Shown one piece after another: positions 58 to 11,067 of a DNA stretch of 17,799 nucleotides. Below the pieces are notes generated by a model, which searched no databases, was not told the DNA's origin, and saw nothing but the letters and a program-made list of their open reading frames with translations. Numbering within the stretch: position 1 is the first letter of the stretch; every line of letters begins with the position of its first letter. The position numbers were made by a program, and so were the translations under genes. The stretch spans positions 1-17,799 of the forward strand of contig CAXTTL010000085.1 in NCBI GenBank assembly GCA_964247135.1, in the 5' to 3' direction. Source of the stretch: an uncultured Deinococcales bacterium (GTDB lineage Bacteria; Deinococcota; Deinococci; Deinococcales; JAAFIG01).

Positions 58-312
58 GTTGACCCCTCTTTTATTGCGTCACAGACGATTGAAGGTTAAA
101 TTTTGGAACATCAAGAATTTCAACGTCCCACGATATCATCTGGCGGCGGCGTATGTACAGAGCCAAATGCGGTATTGATAACGGGGTGAAAACGTAACGC
201 GATTCGCAGTGAATACCCCTCGAGTTGTGTTAGATTCCTCAGTTCAAAAGACCAGTTGATTTGATCAAAGTTTGAGTGAGTCCATATTTAAATCTCGAGT
301 TGGCAGTTGGTA

Positions 313-368
313 GTAGGGTGCGCCTCGCGCACCGTCTTTCACGTGTTTTGATGTGAGGGGCACCTTGC
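313..368. repeat. GTAG-type REP plus degenerate inverted partner (REPIN-like doublet)
   Basis: GTAG-GGTGCGC-CTC-GCGCACC at 313-333 has a perfect 7-bp stem. It is followed by a spacer and a decayed inverted copy ending AGGGGCACCTTGC. It aligns, including the spacer, to the reverse complement of 3646-3833 once the insert there is removed. Confidence 0.75.
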
Positions 369-2626: not shown

Positions 2627-3217
2627 TTAATGAATGGTACTGAGTACTTCTTGACGTTCGAGCGCATCGTGTGCCCGTTGGCTCGAGAGACGATCACCGG
2701 TTTCGGATAAAAACAACGGACCGCGCGAACGCCCAGACAGGTACGAACGCAAGACGCGACTCGCCTCGCCAAGTTTGACCCGCACGCCAGAAAGCAAGGT
2801 CAGGGCATTGTCGCGCCAACTGACATCCTCGGCGTTCAGCATCACGATTTCAGTGACGCGCAACTGCGTGGTCTGAACGATCTCACCGAGCGCCTGATTG
2901 CGGTTGCGCACATAAGATTCTTGCGCCACGCGCGGCGAACGGTGGGGAATGCTGACCCGTAACGCGGGATTTCGCTCGAGTTGCCCTGAGAACTCCAGGA
3001 AATCACCATACGCCCGCAACGCCGCCAACTTTCGTGACACGGTTGCCCTGGCTGTGCCACGACCTGCCAGCACGGACAAGTAATTCTCGAGGTCGGGCGC
3101 GTCAAAAACCCGCACAGACTCGAGCGCCATTGTCACATCGGCAATGTAGGCACGGATGGTTCTTTCGCTCGAGCCTCGGGCTTCGAGATACGTTTGAAAA
3201 TCTTTGGTTGCTTCCAT
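2627..3217 (-). CDS. XerC/XerD-like tyrosine recombinase homolog lacking the C-terminal catalytic half
   Basis: N-terminal integrase SAM-like core (SERTIRAY...RATVSRKLAALRAY...RNPA), box I-like TQLRVTEIVMLNAEDV and PLFLSETGDRLS. The ORF stops at 196 aa, before any HxxR motif or catalytic Tyr. Confidence 0.75.
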   Translation of the reverse strand: MEATKDFQTYLEARGSSERTIRAYIADVTMALESVRVFDAPDLENYLSVLAGRGTARATVSRKLAALRAYGDFLEFSGQLERNPALRVSIPHRSPRVAQESYVRNRNQALGEIVQTTQLRVTEIVMLNAEDVSWRDNALTLLSGVRVKLGEASRVLRSYLSGRSRGPLFLSETGDRLSSQRAHDALERQEVLSTIH

Positions 3218-3361
3218 CGCGCTTGAAGTTTACGAACCCCTGCCAGCGAAGAGGTGAATGTGATGTGAGAAGCGTGGGGCAGGGAGCTTCTCTGGGATTG
3301 ATGGCTTCACAGGTGCTCGAGCCGAAAGCACACAAAGCTTCACGAGCCTGAATCGGTGTGA

Positions 3362-3385
3362 GGGTAAGGCGTGCCTCGCCCCTCC
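3362..3385 (-). repeat. Degenerate REP-like hairpin
   Basis: Minus strand GGAG-GGGCGAGGC-AC-GCCTTACCC: an imperfect hairpin with a GTAG-like tetramer in the divergent intergenic region. Confidence 0.35.
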
Positions 3386-3408
3386 CAGAGCCTGTTAAAC
3401 TCGAGCCT

Positions 3409-3633
3409 GTGAAACCTCTCGCCACGTACCTCTCGCTCGGTTTGCTGGGCATTTTTGCCCTGACCCTGATTTACCAAGTGCTGGTCGGCAAAGTGCCTCG
3501 AGAAATCTTCGCGGTTTTGATTGTCGCTCAAGCCCTGACCCGAATTTGGGGCAACCGTAACGGCGGCAGGAATGGTTGGTTTGGTGTGGGTTTATCGTTG
3601 CTGCTTGCCGCCGCGATCTTGTTTGCCAAATAA
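3409..3633 (+). CDS. Small membrane protein (74 aa, 2-3 TM)
   Basis: Hydrophobic ORF. Start GTG 3409 chosen because TAAACT (3396-3401) lies 7 nt upstream, fitting a leaderless promoter; the ORF track start is 3358. Confidence 0.65.
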   Translation: MKPLATYLSLGLLGIFALTLIYQVLVGKVPREIFAVLIVAQALTRIWGNRNGGRNGWFGVGLSLLLAAAILFAK

Positions 3634-3645
3634 CCTCGAGATGCC

Positions 3646-3833
3646 GTAGGGTGCGCTTCTTGACCATAAAATGCACCTTCTTGATTCCAAGACGCACCTT
3701 CTTGACCATAAAATGCACCTAACGGGCATGGTCGCTAACGGGCGGAATCGCTGACGGGCTTGGGGCGCTCACGGGCATGGTCGCCCCGCGCACCAGAGGT
3801 ACGTGAGACACGGTGCGCAAGGCGCACCCTAAC
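3646..3833. repeat. REPIN-like doublet whose first REP is interrupted by a 128-bp nested repeat array
   Basis: GTAGGGTGCG (3646-3655) joined to CCCCGCGCACC (3784-3794) reconstitutes a REP. An inverted REP GGTGCGCAAGGCGCACCCTAAC lies at 3812-3833. The element sits between convergent genes. Confidence 0.8.
3656..3783. repeat. Nested A3-B4 short-repeat array
   Basis: Three 21-bp units CTTCTT-N6-AARAYG-CAC (3656-3676, 3677-3697, 3698-3718), then four 16-17 bp units CTN-ACGGGC-N6/7-G (3719-3734, 3735-3750, 3751-3767, 3768-3783). Confidence 0.9.
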
Positions 3834-3839
3834 AAAAAC

Positions 3840-6530
3840 TTAAAATTTTCCGTCTTCAGGTTGCGGCAACCCCAGCCCCTCGAGTTGCCCCAAAATCAGG
3901 TTTTTGTCGCCCACCAAGACCAGCAAACTTTTCTCGAGCGCTAACATGTTGGGCGCGAGCGTGTTGAGGCTGGCGGCGTCAAAGGTCGAGAGTTCATCGA
4001 GGGTTGCGCCCAAGCTCGAGAAGGGTTTGCCTTGCACAAATAATTCTTGGGCAGTGCCAATCAGACCCTCGAGCGTCCCAAGGCTGGCGATGGTGTTGAA
4101 ACGCCGTACCGCTGCGGTTTTGCTGGCTTCCTCCGGTGTGATGTCCCCTGGGGTGAGGCGTTTGAATTCGCTCAAAAACTCGCGCAGGCTGGCTCCGGTC
4201 ACGCTGGCTTCGACATCGGTTGCGATGCGCAAATAGCCACTTTTTTGGTTTTGATTCAAGCTCGAGTACACGCCGTAGGTGTATCCCTTGTCTTCGCGCA
4301 AGTTTTGCATCAATCGGCTGGTGAAGGTGTCGCCCAACAGGACGTTCAGGCTGGCGAGTTGGTTGCTGCTGGGGTCGGTTGCCAGCGGCGCAGGAAAGAT
4401 AAAACGAATCGCGGTTTGACTCGAGCCTGGACGGTCCACAATCACCACGCGCTGGGTTTGATTGGCGGGTTGCGGGTAGTTGAGGGTCTCGAGCGGTTTG
4501 CTGGTGTTTTTCCAACCTTTTAATGCCGCCTCGAGCGCGGTTTTGAAATCGCTGGGCTTCAGGCTGCCCGCCGCAAAAACGAGCGCATTGTGCGGTTGCA
4601 TCACGGTTTTGTATTCGGCAATGACATCGCCGAGTTGCATTCTGGAAACGCTCGAGATGTTGCCATTAACCGAATTGGCGGCTGGGTGATCGCGTCCAAA
4701 ATACTCGCGCAGGGCAACTTTGCGTGCCACGGTGTCGATGTCGTCCTTTTCGGCTGCCAGTTCGCTGAGTTTGGAACGTTGGATTTCCTTAAAATTGGAA
4801 ACTTTAAAGCTTGGACGCAGCAGGGCGTCGCCGTACAACTCGAGTGCCGCCTTGAGGTTGGCGCTGGCGACGCTCAGGTTAACCGTCGAAAATTGCAGGT
4901 CGCTGCCGGCGTTAAAACTCGCGCCAATGCCGTTCAGGGCTTGCTCGAAGGCTTGGGCATCGCGTTTTCCGGCACCCAGACCGAGCAATTCGGTCATGAT
5001 GCTCGAGCGTCCGGCGTTATTTTGGTTTTCAATGTCTGCGCCGCCACGAAACAGCGTTGAAATGTACGTCAGTGGCAGGTTCGCACGCTGCCAGTAATTG
5101 ACTTTGACGCCGCTCGAGAGGCTGAATTCGGTCATGGCTGGGGGTTTAAACGTGGTAATGGCGGAGTCTGGCGGACGCGGCACGTTGACTTCATCGCTGT
5201 TGCGGCTTGGGGCTGGCAGCACGTTGATCACGACTCTGGCATTGAAATTTAAAACCAGTTTGGCACGCGCCAACAAACTTTTTGGCGTGACCTTGCGGTA
5301 GCGCTCGAGGTCAAAGGCAAAACTGTTCGGGTTGCCCAGGTAAAACTGGTAATTGTTCAAGGCATCGGCTTTGGCAGCCAAATCTTGCAAGGCTTCAAGT
5401 TTGTGGGTCTCGAGCGCCCGAACATAAGGCACCAAGCTTGCGGCACTCACGCCTTTTTTCAAGAATTCCTTGAGGTTTTTGTCAATCGCCGCCTCGAGCT
5501 TCCCTGGCGTGATGCCGCTGGCAGGGATGGCTTCAATGCTAAACACGCCACCCAAGGCTTGCGAAATGTTGGACACGCTGACATCGTCCGCCAAACCCGC
5601 CACCACCAAATTCTGGTACAACCGACTCGAGTAACCCTCGCCCAGCACCTGCGCCAGCAGATCGGTTTCGGCATCGTTGTAACCGTACAAGCGCGGGCTG
5701 TGCCACGCCATAATCACTTTCGGCGCGGAGACGTTGTCGGCAAAGGTGGCGCGTTTGACCGCCAGCAATTTTGCATCGGGCACGGGTTTGCGCAAAATAT
5801 CGGACGCTCTGGGAATGCTTTTAAACAAACCCGAGATCAGTGGCTTGATTTTCTTGGGGTCAAAATCGCCAGCCACCACCATCGAGGCGTTGTTCGGCAC
5901 GTAATAGGTGTTGAAAAACCGTTTGACATCCGCCACGGTTGCCGCGTTCAAATCCTCTTCGGTGCCAATAACCGGATTGAAATACGGATGGTTGCTCGGG
6001 TACAGGTATTTGCTCAACGCATCCTCGGCTTGGGCATAAGGCGTGCCAATCACGTTCTGACGCATTTCGTTCAAGACCACATTGCGCTGCAAATCGAGTT
6101 TTTTCTGGTCAATGTTTTTGCCCAGATTCGCCATCCGATCCGCCTCGAGCCACAACAGCGTCGGAAGTTGCGAACTCGGACCGCTCGAGTAATAATTGGT
6201 GTAATCGGCGTTGGTGCTGGCGTTGTTGCTGCCGCCGCCCGCCTCCATGATCTTGTCAAAATTGGGCGCGGCTTTGGTGCCCATGAACATTAAATGTTCA
6301 AACAGATGCGCGAATCCCGAACGCATGGCGGGTTCGTCCTTGGAACCGACCCGAAACCACAAGTTGACCGCCGCCGTCGGCAGGCTGTGATCGACGTGCA
6401 AAATCACGGTCAGACCGTTTTGCAACACGTACTTTTCGGTCGCCACGTTGAGCTTTTGGGCAAATGCTCCGGGCAGCAAGCTCGAGACGGTCAAAGCGGT
6501 AAAAATCAGGGTTTTTTTGAATCGGTTCAT
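3840..6530 (-). CDS. Secreted M16 (pitrilysin/PqqL-like) zinc peptidase
   Basis: 896 aa with a signal peptide (AFA-Q), inverted zinc motif AHLFEHLMF, NASTNADYTNY, and C-terminal SRLMQNLREDKGYTYG. Confidence 0.95.
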   Translation of the reverse strand: MNRFKKTLIFTALTVSSLLPGAFAQKLNVATEKYVLQNGLTVILHVDHSLPTAAVNLWFRVGSKDEPAMRSGFAHLFEHLMFMGTKAAPNFDKIMEAGGGSNNASTNADYTNYYSSGPSSQLPTLLWLEADRMANLGKNIDQKKLDLQRNVVLNEMRQNVIGTPYAQAEDALSKYLYPSNHPYFNPVIGTEEDLNAATVADVKRFFNTYYVPNNASMVVAGDFDPKKIKPLISGLFKSIPRASDILRKPVPDAKLLAVKRATFADNVSAPKVIMAWHSPRLYGYNDAETDLLAQVLGEGYSSRLYQNLVVAGLADDVSVSNISQALGGVFSIEAIPASGITPGKLEAAIDKNLKEFLKKGVSAASLVPYVRALETHKLEALQDLAAKADALNNYQFYLGNPNSFAFDLERYRKVTPKSLLARAKLVLNFNARVVINVLPAPSRNSDEVNVPRPPDSAITTFKPPAMTEFSLSSGVKVNYWQRANLPLTYISTLFRGGADIENQNNAGRSSIMTELLGLGAGKRDAQAFEQALNGIGASFNAGSDLQFSTVNLSVASANLKAALELYGDALLRPSFKVSNFKEIQRSKLSELAAEKDDIDTVARKVALREYFGRDHPAANSVNGNISSVSRMQLGDVIAEYKTVMQPHNALVFAAGSLKPSDFKTALEAALKGWKNTSKPLETLNYPQPANQTQRVVIVDRPGSSQTAIRFIFPAPLATDPSSNQLASLNVLLGDTFTSRLMQNLREDKGYTYGVYSSLNQNQKSGYLRIATDVEASVTGASLREFLSEFKRLTPGDITPEEASKTAAVRRFNTIASLGTLEGLIGTAQELFVQGKPFSSLGATLDELSTFDAASLNTLAPNMLALEKSLLVLVGDKNLILGQLEGLGLPQPEDGKF

Positions 6531-7560: not shown

Positions 7561-7674
7561 CTCCTCTCATCCCCGACCCTTCTTGACCATTCCCGCACCT
7601 TCTTGTTTTCAAGACGCACCTTACGGGCGAAACCGCTTCGGGCATGGTCGCTTCTCTTCCAGGAGAGAAGGGAG
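7561..7674. repeat. Palindromic intergenic element (CTCTCATCCCCGACCCTTCTCT...AGAGAAGGGAG) interrupted by a 72-bp nested array
   Basis: Removing 7579-7650 gives the perfect 9-bp stem CCCTTCTCT-TCCAGG-AGAGAAGGG preceded by a C-rich leader. Located between convergent genes. Confidence 0.7.
7579..7650. repeat. Nested A2-B2 short-repeat array (same family as 3656-3783)
   Basis: Units CTTCTTGACCATTCCCGCAC (7579-7598), CTTCTTGTTTTCAAGACGCAC (7599-7619), CTTACGGGCGAAACCG (7620-7635), CTTCGGGCATGGTCG (7636-7650). Confidence 0.9.
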
Positions 7675-7721
7675 TTTTGTTGATTTCTCGAGAAATCGGA
7701 ATTCCGTTTCTCAAACGCCAT

Positions 7722-10979: not shown

Positions 10980-11067
10980 CCGCTCGGGTGACGGGTTCGA
11001 GTCCCGCTCGGGTGACGGGTTCGAGTCCCGCTCGGGTGACGGGTTCGAGTCCCGCTCGGGTGACGGG
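10980..11067. repeat. Perfect 24-bp tandem repeat, about 3.7 copies
   Basis: CCGCTCGGGTGACGGGTTCGAGTC at 10980-11003, 11004-11027 and 11028-11051, plus a 16-bp partial copy at 11052-11067. Confidence 0.95.

Follow-up and report, generated by a model that had tools for sequence, protein, structure and literature searches.

A 36-39-nt hairpin unit nested in copies of itself and in other hairpin loops of a Deinococcales genome

The array and its host hairpin

The DNA considered here, referred to as the window, is a stretch of 17,799 nt from contig CAXTTL010000085.1 (C85) of the assembly GCA_964247135.1 (G000), and all positions are those of the whole window. The assembly is a metagenome-assembled genome (MAG) of a Deinococcales bacterium, 5.09 Mb long in 386 contigs, with 52.7% G+C and 84% completeness. 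At 3657-3784 the window contains an array of 128 nt, in which three left halves are followed by four right halves of one unit of about 37 nt, and which is probably a stack of copies of a non-autonomous mobile DNA hairpin of 36-39 nt. The array occupies the loop of a GTAG-tagged hairpin, a repetitive extragenic palindromic (REP) sequence that reads GTAGGGTGCGC before the array and CCC GCGCACC after it. This hairpin lies between convergent genes: an open reading frame (ORF) on the plus strand (3358-3633) has its stop on one side, and an M16 peptidase gene on the minus strand (3840-6530) has its stop on the other.

The left half (A) is 21 nt long and consists of TTCTTG, a 5-nt stem, AARAYG and CACC, while the right half (B), of 16-17 nt, consists of T-N-ACGGGC, the complementary stem and CGC. 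The original prediction, made from the letters of the window, had described such an array, with two periods, hexamers that are reverse complements from the inside out and a third right half (B3) left unpaired, and this description was borne out. Tandem Repeats Finder reported a 21-nt period of 3.1 copies at 3656-3720 and a 16-nt period of 4.1 copies at 3719-3784, and both repeat families were recovered again by a separate repeat search of the window. The stems pair exactly, with L3/R3 being GACCAT/ATGGTC, L2/R2 GATTCC/GGAATC and L1/R1 GACCAT/ATGGTC. The parts of the array and of its host are as follows.

3646-3656, plus strand: 5' arm of the host REP, GTAG tag and GGTGCGC; REP family A, also flanking the REP-associated tyrosine transposase (RAYT) gene on contig C1
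3657-3677, plus strand: L1, left half of the outermost unit, TTCTTG-ACCAT-AAAATG-CACC (stem GACCAT); partner R1
3673-3769, plus strand: 97-nt block, 100% identical to C4:45120-45216 of G000; the middle unit with its inner unit and the orphan right half
3678-3698, plus strand: L2, left half of the middle unit (stem GATTCC); partner R2
3699-3719, plus strand: L3, left half of the innermost unit (stem GACCAT); partner R3
3699-3735, plus strand: innermost complete 37-nt unit (L3+R3); as single-stranded DNA (ssDNA) its fold is a bulged hairpin of -5.6 kcal/mol
3720-3735, plus strand: R3, right half of the innermost unit (stem ATGGTC)
3736-3751, plus strand: R2, right half of the middle unit, TAACGGGC-GGAAT-CGC (stem GGAATC)
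3752-3768, plus strand: orphan right half (B3), TGACGGGC-TTGGGGC-GC, GCCCC-type; left half missing in the window and present on C4
3769-3784, plus strand: R1, right half of the outermost unit, TCACGGGC-ATGGT-CGC (stem ATGGTC)
3785-3794, plus strand: remainder of the host REP, loop remnant CCC and 3' arm GCGCACC (3788-3794)
3812-3833, minus strand: second REP of the host doublet, inverted, GGTGCGC-AAG-GCGCACCCTAAC on the plus strand; uninterrupted, its outer 10 nt pair with 3647-3656

Three results go beyond the original prediction, namely that the loops of REP hairpins also host units, that the host of the window array is such a REP, and that the unpaired B3 has an explanation on contig C4. 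There, the 97-nt block starts within a GCCCC-type unit whose left half, CTTGCCCCTGAAAGCAGCACC, precedes it, and B3 is a properly paired right half. In the window the same block, bounded by the initial T of the ATTCC unit and the terminal C of the GCCCC right half, occupies the CACC^T point (the caret marks the insertion point) of the ACCAT unit. B3 would be unpaired in the window because the 97-nt composite brought with it the right half of a unit that formerly enclosed it. Two possibilities are conceivable for how this came about: the composite may have moved by using the next available 3' end, or the left half may have been lost later between 11-nt direct repeats (GCACCTTCTTG).

Structure, nesting and insertion points of the units

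The whole of G000 was searched with a pattern that fixed the constant parts and left the stems free. It returned 167 contiguous units (a left half directly followed by a right half), 101 of them with perfectly complementary 5-nt stems and 30 with one mismatch. These 131 copies provide the solitary units of the 36-39-nt class that had been proposed as something to look for; their lengths are 37 nt (66 units), 36 (33), 38 (11), 39 (8), 40 (12) and 34 (1). Removing the complete units and rescanning the genome (peeling), which gave the 131 in the first round, exposed 19 more in the second, so that G000 holds about 150 copies altogether. Many stem types occur, including ACCAT, GTTTC, ATCCC, ATGCC, ATTCC, ACCCT and GCCCC, and the bulge sequence is particular to each type. 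The array is far from chance, because the same architecture recurs genome-wide and a reversed-pattern control gave no match in any of 121 genomes.

Each unit is composed of a 5' tail (TTCTTG), a variable outer helix of 5-6 bp, an A-rich 5' bulge, an inner helix, a T-N-A-C tetraloop and a 3' tail (CGC). The inner helix is conserved, with GC.CC pairing with GG.GC to close the tetraloop, and both are also backed by pair counts; the constant parts of the two halves, which the original prediction had taken as not complementary, are therefore partly so. Single units folded as DNA give a bulged hairpin with a 4-6-nt A-rich 5' bulge and -4.4 to -5.8 kcal/mol. The covariation of the two stem arms, expected by the prediction to recur in additional copies, was examined in 68 distinct units from other genomes, found by a pattern that fixed the constant parts alone. 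In this set, 92.4% of the cells of the 6-bp outer helix are paired, and five of the six pairs show changes on both sides. Doubly changed cells number 103, compared with 34.5 in shuffles (none of 500 shuffles reached the observed value), and sliding the partner by 1-3 columns lowers the pairing to 33-45%. The consensus CTTCTTG...CGC is present in 68 of the 68 aligned units, and neither GTAG nor CGTC is found at either end on either strand.

By a crude ORF map covering 89% of the genome, 94 of 122 arrays lie outside long ORFs. Gaps between convergent genes are preferred, with 24 arrays as opposed to 9 in divergent gaps (background 764 vs 761). Relative to co-directional flanking genes, 17 arrays have the same orientation and 28 the opposite one, and the association of orientation with GC skew or gene strand (Fisher p = 0.02 and 0.047 on 67 and 101 arrays, respectively) is a weak one in a fragmented MAG. 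An apparent excess of orphan right halves, considered as a sign of 3' read-through, was dropped since most of the parsed "orphans" had an unrecognised upstream partner.

The rule by which units combine was established by converting abutting halves into tokens and by scoring as nested or crossed every left-left-right-right quartet whose left stems differ by at least 2 nt. The 22 quartets of G000 comprise 17 nested, none crossed, 4 in which the inner pair alone matches and 1 other, and the 23 quartets from 80 loci of other genomes (L001-L080) comprise 14 nested, none crossed, 6 inner-only and 3 others. Combined, 31 of 45 quartets are nested and none is crossed; most of the unclear ones have stems of the GCCC and CTCGT types, in which the arms contain imperfections or fall out of register in a 5-nt comparison. 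Furthermore, all 21 nested insertions revealed by peeling enter the host unit at a single point, 17 of them after CACC and 4 one base later. This point, CACC^T, is the 5' edge of the apical tetraloop of the host unit.

The original prediction had proposed a mini-element of about 37 bp, made of A plus B, that inserts into its own centre at GCAC^CT. Insertion into the centre is upheld by the solitary units, by the nesting without crossing, by the single insertion point, by the empty alleles and the series of nesting depths 0, 1 and 2 described below, and by the stem covariation of the 68 units from other genomes. The exact position has to be moved one base to the right, to GCACC^T, with the unit running from TTCTTG to CGC, because the boundary is set by those insertions that have an A or a T at the end of the left flank. 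We further infer from the order L_a L_b R_b R_a that units do not integrate through recombination of two loop sites, from which L_a R_b L_b R_a would result. Since each unit carries a CACC^T target, every insertion makes a new target, and successive insertions produce arrays of the Russian-doll kind.

Units are also found in the loops of other hairpins. The hosts include three GTAG-tagged REP families, namely GTAGGGTGCGC^C.C GCGCACC, GTAGGGGCGCTGC^TTGCTGCGCCC (in either host orientation) and GTAGGGGTGAACC^TTGTGTTCACCC. Further recurrent contexts are other small palindromes and the ACCC^TTCTC point of a larger repeat, the D repeat (CTCATCCCCRACCC TTCTCCC..GGGAGAAGGG), which is present in the window at 7565-7690 and at about 40 other places in G000, often with a unit at this point and also as empty copies. 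Two further features of the window illustrate a free and an occupied site.

311-333, plus strand: empty REP-A copy, GTAGTAGGGTGCGC-CTC-GCGCACC; unfilled-site control inside the window
7580-7651, plus strand: second nested array, an ACCAT-type unit enclosing a GTTTC-type unit, at ACCC^TTCTC of the D repeat (CTCATCCCCGACCC ... GGAGAGAAGGGAG)

A flanking stem of at least 6 bp surrounds 28 of 169 arrays, compared with 84 of 5000 random site pairs. Target duplications are not seen, as the two sides of a unit differ (e.g., ACA-unit-AGG and GTGT-unit-TTCG), and contexts such as ...GAACACA-unit-AGGTTCACC... and ...GTAAGTGT-unit-TTCGTCCC define the inserted segment as TTCTTG...CGC. Among the 114 outermost arrays used as the junction set (86 distinct contexts), a C precedes the unit in 86 and a T follows it in 84, in a genome with 26% C and 24% T; 16 further left flanks end in CT and would also be C^T junctions, provided that this T is part of the unit tail. 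Tandem runs result where a unit is inserted beside the end of another one (CGC^T).

Some units lie within ORFs. A 36-nt unit (L126:15615-15650, that is, C44:21177-21212 of G000) follows codon 4 of an acetyltransferase-like ORF, a putative label given by inspection of the sequence, where it keeps the frame and adds 12 residues; the orthologue in the related genome G001 has no unit. The same point carries the stems GATCCT/AGGATC in G000 and GACCTT/AAGGTC in G003, so that both arms have changed and pairing is kept. The adjoining ORF is presumably an argininosuccinate-lyase gene, and at L126:15510-15513 the TAG of a REP GTAG tag is the stop codon of the upstream 461-aa ORF. Another 36-nt unit (L160, G003:C488, 1771-1834) lies in the loop of a REP that is itself internal to a RAYT-like ORF, and the frame remains open over 196 aa.

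Orthologous sites were compared in five genomes of the same genus (G001-G005), whose flanking genes are about 85-88% identical to those of G000; all genomes compared in this study are metagenome-assembled, and related genomes are not independent of each other. Twelve G000 sites were queried, the site of the window array and eleven others, and 11 of them have an orthologue in at least one congener. At all 11, the unit or units are exactly missing in at least one congener, which are the empty alleles that the prediction had suggested looking for. The site of the window array contains neither REP nor array in G004 and G002, a REP doublet with an intact CTT loop in G001, the same REP with an array of other make-up (one GGTCTC and one ACCAT unit) in G005, and a REP in the opposite orientation with another array again in G003. 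The D repeat that carries the second nested array of the window is empty in G005. At a further site (C54:12875), G003 and G004 have depth 0 (GGGC/TTCGAG), G005 has depth 1 (one CTCGT-type unit), and two genomes have depth 2, the CTCGT-type unit holding a GTTTC inner unit in G000 and an ATCCC inner unit in G001. At C44:9602, a single D-repeat point holds a GCCCC unit in G000 and G003, an ACCAT unit in G002 and nothing in G001. The presence of different units at one orthologous point implies that loss alone is insufficient to explain the variation.

The G005 orthologue of window 3634-3835 (L105, on contig C6 of G005) has in addition a conventional miniature inverted-repeat transposable element (MITE) of about 300 nt within the right half of a unit. 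Unlike the units, it has terminal inverted repeats (ACTCCGACTTAATC / GATTAAGTCGGAAT) and a 10-bp direct duplication (CATGGTCGCC).

Mechanism and rival explanations

The reading that we consider most probable is that the unit would be inserted in its entirety (first T to last C), without target duplication, into exposed DNA hairpin loops. In the window, a GTAG-tagged REP hairpin between convergent genes would have taken an ACCAT-type unit into its loop, and the loop of this unit would then have taken the 97-nt composite also known on C4, which would be an ATTCC-type unit already holding an ACCAT-type unit, together with the right half of its enclosing unit. As for the chemistry, single-strand cleavage and strand transfer at C^T might be performed in trans by a RAYT, an HUH tyrosine transposase, and that such an enzyme mobilises the units is a tentative proposal. 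What the data establish are the unit with its boundaries, nesting without crossing, the fixed self-insertion point, the lack of target duplication, a strong preference for hairpin loops and for C^T, and rapid gain and loss of units between species.

Co-occurring HUH or RAYT proteins had been suggested as something to find, and they are indeed present in G000 near the host REPs; the REPs that go with the RAYT genes are favoured hosts of the units. Four Y1_Tnp matches were obtained in the genome, and C383 contributes a fifth homologue. The genes on C136 (1883-2383) and C1 each lie between inverted GTAG REPs that belong to host families, REP-B and REP-A (the family of the window's host), respectively, and the C383 homologue adjoins REP-C copies, one of which bears a unit. 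According to excerpts of PMC3479197, the TnpA-REP of E. coli breaks ssDNA between the C and the T of a CT dinucleotide (C being 5' and T 3' of the cut), which may be located to either side of the hairpin, and the enzyme is also able to transfer strands. A T-to-C fragment pasted at C^T would be the expected product of TnpA-REP-like chemistry. Pushed further, the unit may be a self-targeting ssDNA element, the smallest mobile DNA with its own integration site, which a RAYT-type HUH nuclease would excise at C^T...C^T and paste into the apical loop of any extruded hairpin, that of the unit included; we regard this form of the idea as doubtful.

Several observations weigh against mobility or against this enzyme. 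Some of the "empty" sites could be precise deletions, as presence and absence are unpolarised on a tree, and identical tandem runs could arise by slippage instead of insertion. About a quarter of the junctions are not C^T, and at the 3' junction the REP-A hosts, that of the window among them, show C^C. None of 23 Y1-like loci in 10 genomes (G000 and nine relatives) is flanked by units as its own end repeats; the repeats flanking or inside these loci are GTAG palindromes, and units are present only as inserts within or beside them. RAYT homologues are also present in sister families devoid of units (5 of 27 genomes of family f2, 8 of 23 of f4 and 9 of 26 of f5), and the units lack the GTAG tag that, in the available portion of PMC3479197, the E. 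coli RAYT needs in cis. Finally, G000 yielded no autonomous version in which a gene occupies the loop: a search for matching left and right halves 150-8000 nt apart gave 10 pairs, four of which are ACCAT-type pairs that join separate arrays, and none was taken as an autonomous element.

The units could instead be selected structural modules of RNA or ssDNA, such as 3'-end terminators or mRNA-stabilising hairpins, with arrays grown by duplication and pairing kept by selection. The strong stem covariation is what this explanation would lead one to expect, and so are the location of most arrays outside long ORFs, the preference for convergent gaps, one of which holds the window array itself, and the folding of the array region, which exceeds that of shuffles as RNA (z = -2.68 on the plus strand and -2.10 on the minus strand) and as DNA (z = -2.95). 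We nevertheless judge it unlikely, because the orientation is mixed (17 vs 28), a lone unit folds weakly as DNA, 11 of 11 sites are empty or differently filled in species whose flanks are about 85-88% identical, units are found within other repeats and within ORFs, and Rfam offers no match. Moreover, palindrome pairing can also be maintained by copying from master copies, and a structural role may be a side effect of the units, not their origin. In the alternative of the original prediction, the array is a ssDNA or RNA ladder of short stems; this is a possible consequence of the structure, it is not needed to explain the array, and it fits orientation and polymorphism less well.

Transposition might be dispensed with altogether if the conserved motifs (GCACCTTCTTG, CGCTNACGGGC) of a tandem repeat family had served as sites of replication slippage, unequal crossing-over and gene conversion and the arrays had arisen in this way. 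Tandem runs of identical units do exist (for example, three of the GTTTC type on C6 and a run of four in G009), as do orphan halves and duplicated blocks, and the 97-nt block common to C4 could be a conversion tract. However, these processes cannot put an intact unit with a different stem inside another, which is the arrangement seen in 31 of the 45 informative quartets (0 crossed), nor do they account for solitary, exact-ended units in unrelated contexts (REP loops, the D repeat, an ORF) or for different units at the same orthologous point across species. We regard this explanation as very unlikely. It is extremely unlikely that the array is an artefact of assembly. The MAG is fragmented and incomplete, and the sequencing runs contain at most 0.17 of the words sampled from the stretch, too little to check the exact array against reads, but the array is only 128 nt long, the units and their nested arrays are found in 17 of 18 separately assembled genomes of the bacterial family, one of them a single contig, and contigs from four public runs hold many variants of these units.

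The preferred reading, a mobile hairpin that enters hairpin loops, bears on the spread of REP-like miniature repeats, a long-standing open question, as RAYTs cut and join REP DNA in vitro and natural insertions are hard to see. The present family leaves exact footprints that can be interpreted, with defined ends, no duplication and a fixed self-target at the hairpin tip, and hairpin loops, those of REPs included, can be targets for an element of just 37 nt. The order of insertion can be read from nested arrays, single sites in sister species differ by exactly one unit or one level of nesting, and in-frame entry into ORFs leads to small peptide insertions in proteins. The family also supplies concrete substrates for questions about strand transfer by HUH nucleases. 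If the unit were a self-targeting ssDNA element, nested arrays would be an ordered record of transposition, and RAYTs would gain a directly testable substrate and product.

The RAYT-like ORFs of the family have a further feature. Many of them contain a perfect GTAG...CTAC palindrome mid-frame, between two RAYT-matching halves, with the frame open (L159, L162, L164, L166, L174 and L176, from G003, G005, G001, G002, G007 and G011, and C5:5357-5384 of G000), and such a REP, located within the gene for its own transposase, might have an autoregulatory role.

Distribution and related elements

A scan of one genome per species gave at least 103 stretches with the unit pattern, and all 80 listed are from MAGs of Deinococcales bacteria. 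Within the family of the window genome, matches are present in 17 of 18 other genomes, with 4-175 per genome (88 in G000 by the same pattern); the genome without a match has 2.3 Mb and is 82% complete. Four sister families had no match in 102 genomes, 26 of which belong to family f3. In a second sample of 150 sister-family genomes, 1-2 matches occur in 3 of 82 genomes of f3 and in none of the other 68. Three of the four places in f3 look like genuine intergenic units with complementary stems, and the fourth looks like a chance match in GC-rich coding sequence. The look-alikes (L251-L253, in G149 and G143), of which TTCTTG-GACAG-AACG-GCACC-TACCGGGC-CTGTC-CGC is an example, may represent an older state of the family with few copies. 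In viral contigs the unit pattern gave no stretch.

Among the 15 sequencing runs listed, the best contains 0.17 of the sampled words of the stretch, and no RNA run is listed as containing it. Four runs yielded contigs of relatives or of other repeat copies alone, with no piece spanning the stretch; one X2 contig joins 3633 to 3832 through 56 other letters and resembles the array-free REP allele of G001.

No catalogued counterpart of the unit was found: an Rfam scan of the whole window at gathering score gave no match, and the literature searched, which left aside the supplementary REP lists of PMC3733652 and PMC6006769, holds no description of this unit family or of nested REP-like units in Deinococcales. 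The exclusions made by the original prediction also hold. The array is not a simple tandem repeat, and it is not a CRISPR array, because its halves abut without spacers and two repeat types follow each other in left-to-right order. A classical MITE does not fit units with differing flanks and no target duplication (ACA-unit-AGG, GTGT-unit-TTCG), and a true MITE was seen in the G005 orthologue. An origin as an IS200/IS605-derived palindrome-associated element (PATE) was rejected as well. The sole clear IS200-type tnpA, on C249 (132 bits), was considered as the hairpin source, and its end hairpins (CGAAGCAAGCTTCG) are unrelated to the unit; this comparison of insertion sequences (ISs) was made in an incomplete MAG, from which other IS200/IS605 copies may be missing.

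The unit can be described as a miniature element like REPs and like the small dispersed repeats (SDRs) of cyanobacteria, distinguished by a built-in target at the tip of its own hairpin. It shares with REPs, with bacterial interspersed mosaic elements (BIMEs) and with REP doublets forming hairpins (REPINs) the 20-40-nt size class and a bulged imperfect palindrome with a variable stem and conserved unpaired parts. Further shared traits are high copy number, a mostly extragenic location, enrichment at gene 3' ends, restriction to a lineage, co-occurrence with RAYT genes and mostly C^T junctions, C^T being the cutting dinucleotide of E. coli TnpA-REP (excerpts of PMC3479197 and PMC3733652). The unit family is an imperfect palindrome of high copy number (131 units of 34-40 nt) and mostly extragenic (94 of 122 arrays). 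The GTAG/CGTC tag at the foot of REP hairpins is absent from the units and carried by their host hairpins, and no copies flank a RAYT gene (as in a REPtron) in the 23 Y1-like loci. The unit differs from REPINs in being a single hairpin instead of an inverted doublet (the host at 3646-3833 is such a doublet), and from BIMEs in that units insert into hairpin loops, those of GTAG REPs and their own, giving nested instead of alternating arrays. REPs inserted in other small palindromes and in ORFs are on record in part of PMC3733652. The unit works like a REP and may use REP enzymology.

Cyanobacterial SDR elements are the nearest concept, from which the unit is set apart by description. SDR5 sits between the third and fourth base of HIP1, a precise insertion in another short repeat, according to a citing passage of PMC4390886. 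SDR1-8 of heterocyst-forming strains (Elhai et al. 2008, Genome Res 18:1484) are likewise apparently mobile repeats of tens of nucleotides with a conserved predicted hairpin and compensatory changes. They differ in belonging to another phylum and in their unrelated sequence, and the unit is longer (36-39 nt), targets its own apical loop and propagates its own target. Some SDRs reportedly nest within others, and they are said to be 21-27 nt long.

Closer in taxonomy are the mosaic small noncoding repeats (SNRs) of D. radiodurans, which number 295 copies of at least 9 types and are not in D. geothermalis, as stated in an excerpt of PMC1978522. These belong to the same order as the window genome and are short noncoding repeats of "unusual, mosaic structure" (same excerpt), a likeness that is by description only; unlike them, the unit pattern was found in 0 of 26 genomes of family f3, and then at 1-2 copies in 3 of 82.

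Insertion into palindromic units or REPs is known for ISs (Clement 1999, for IS1397; Tobes & Pareja 2006; both as cited in the available part of PMC3116915). The units resemble IS1397-type elements in this specificity, and differ from such full-length ISs, which encode their own transposase, in being gene-free, 37 nt long and without duplication. IS1397 is said to be of the DDE type and to duplicate its target. Rickettsia palindromic elements (RPEs) are small palindromic repeats that lie in frame within ORFs and have a CGTC tag, according to a portion of PMC3733652. The units in frame in the acetyltransferase-like ORF (36 nt) and inside the RAYT-like ORF are similar to them, whereas the units lack CGTC and most of them are 37 nt long and extragenic. 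RPEs are longer, about 100-150 nt.

Another short sequence is abundant in G000. CTCGAG is present 33,925 times in 5.09 Mb and so exceeds the expectation from composition 25-fold; it lies at many sites in the window (e.g., 3636-3641 and 3880-3885). GCTCGAGC occurs 4,225 times, 45 times the expectation. In 10 genomes of the family, G000 included, GCTCGAGC is present 1,420-4,225 times, compared with 0-165 for the reversed word CGAGCTCG, and in the sister families its excess is far weaker or missing. The CTCGAG word looks like a highly iterated palindrome of the HIP1 kind in a Deinococcales lineage, and a literature search that included CTCGAG with Deinococcales palindromes found no description of it.

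Two other features of the window may be mentioned. An ORF of 196 aa on the minus strand (2627-3217), which lies upstream of the array by about 430 nt, weakly matches the SAM-like and the catalytic domains of phage integrases; Phage_int_SAM_1 passes the Pfam cut-off and the other two matches (23.4 and 21 bits) are below it; it is possibly a truncated tyrosine recombinase, judging by these domain matches. At 10980-11067 the window contains a perfect tandem repeat of 24 nt (CCGCTCGGGTGACGGGTTCGAGTC), with 3.7 copies and 100% matches.

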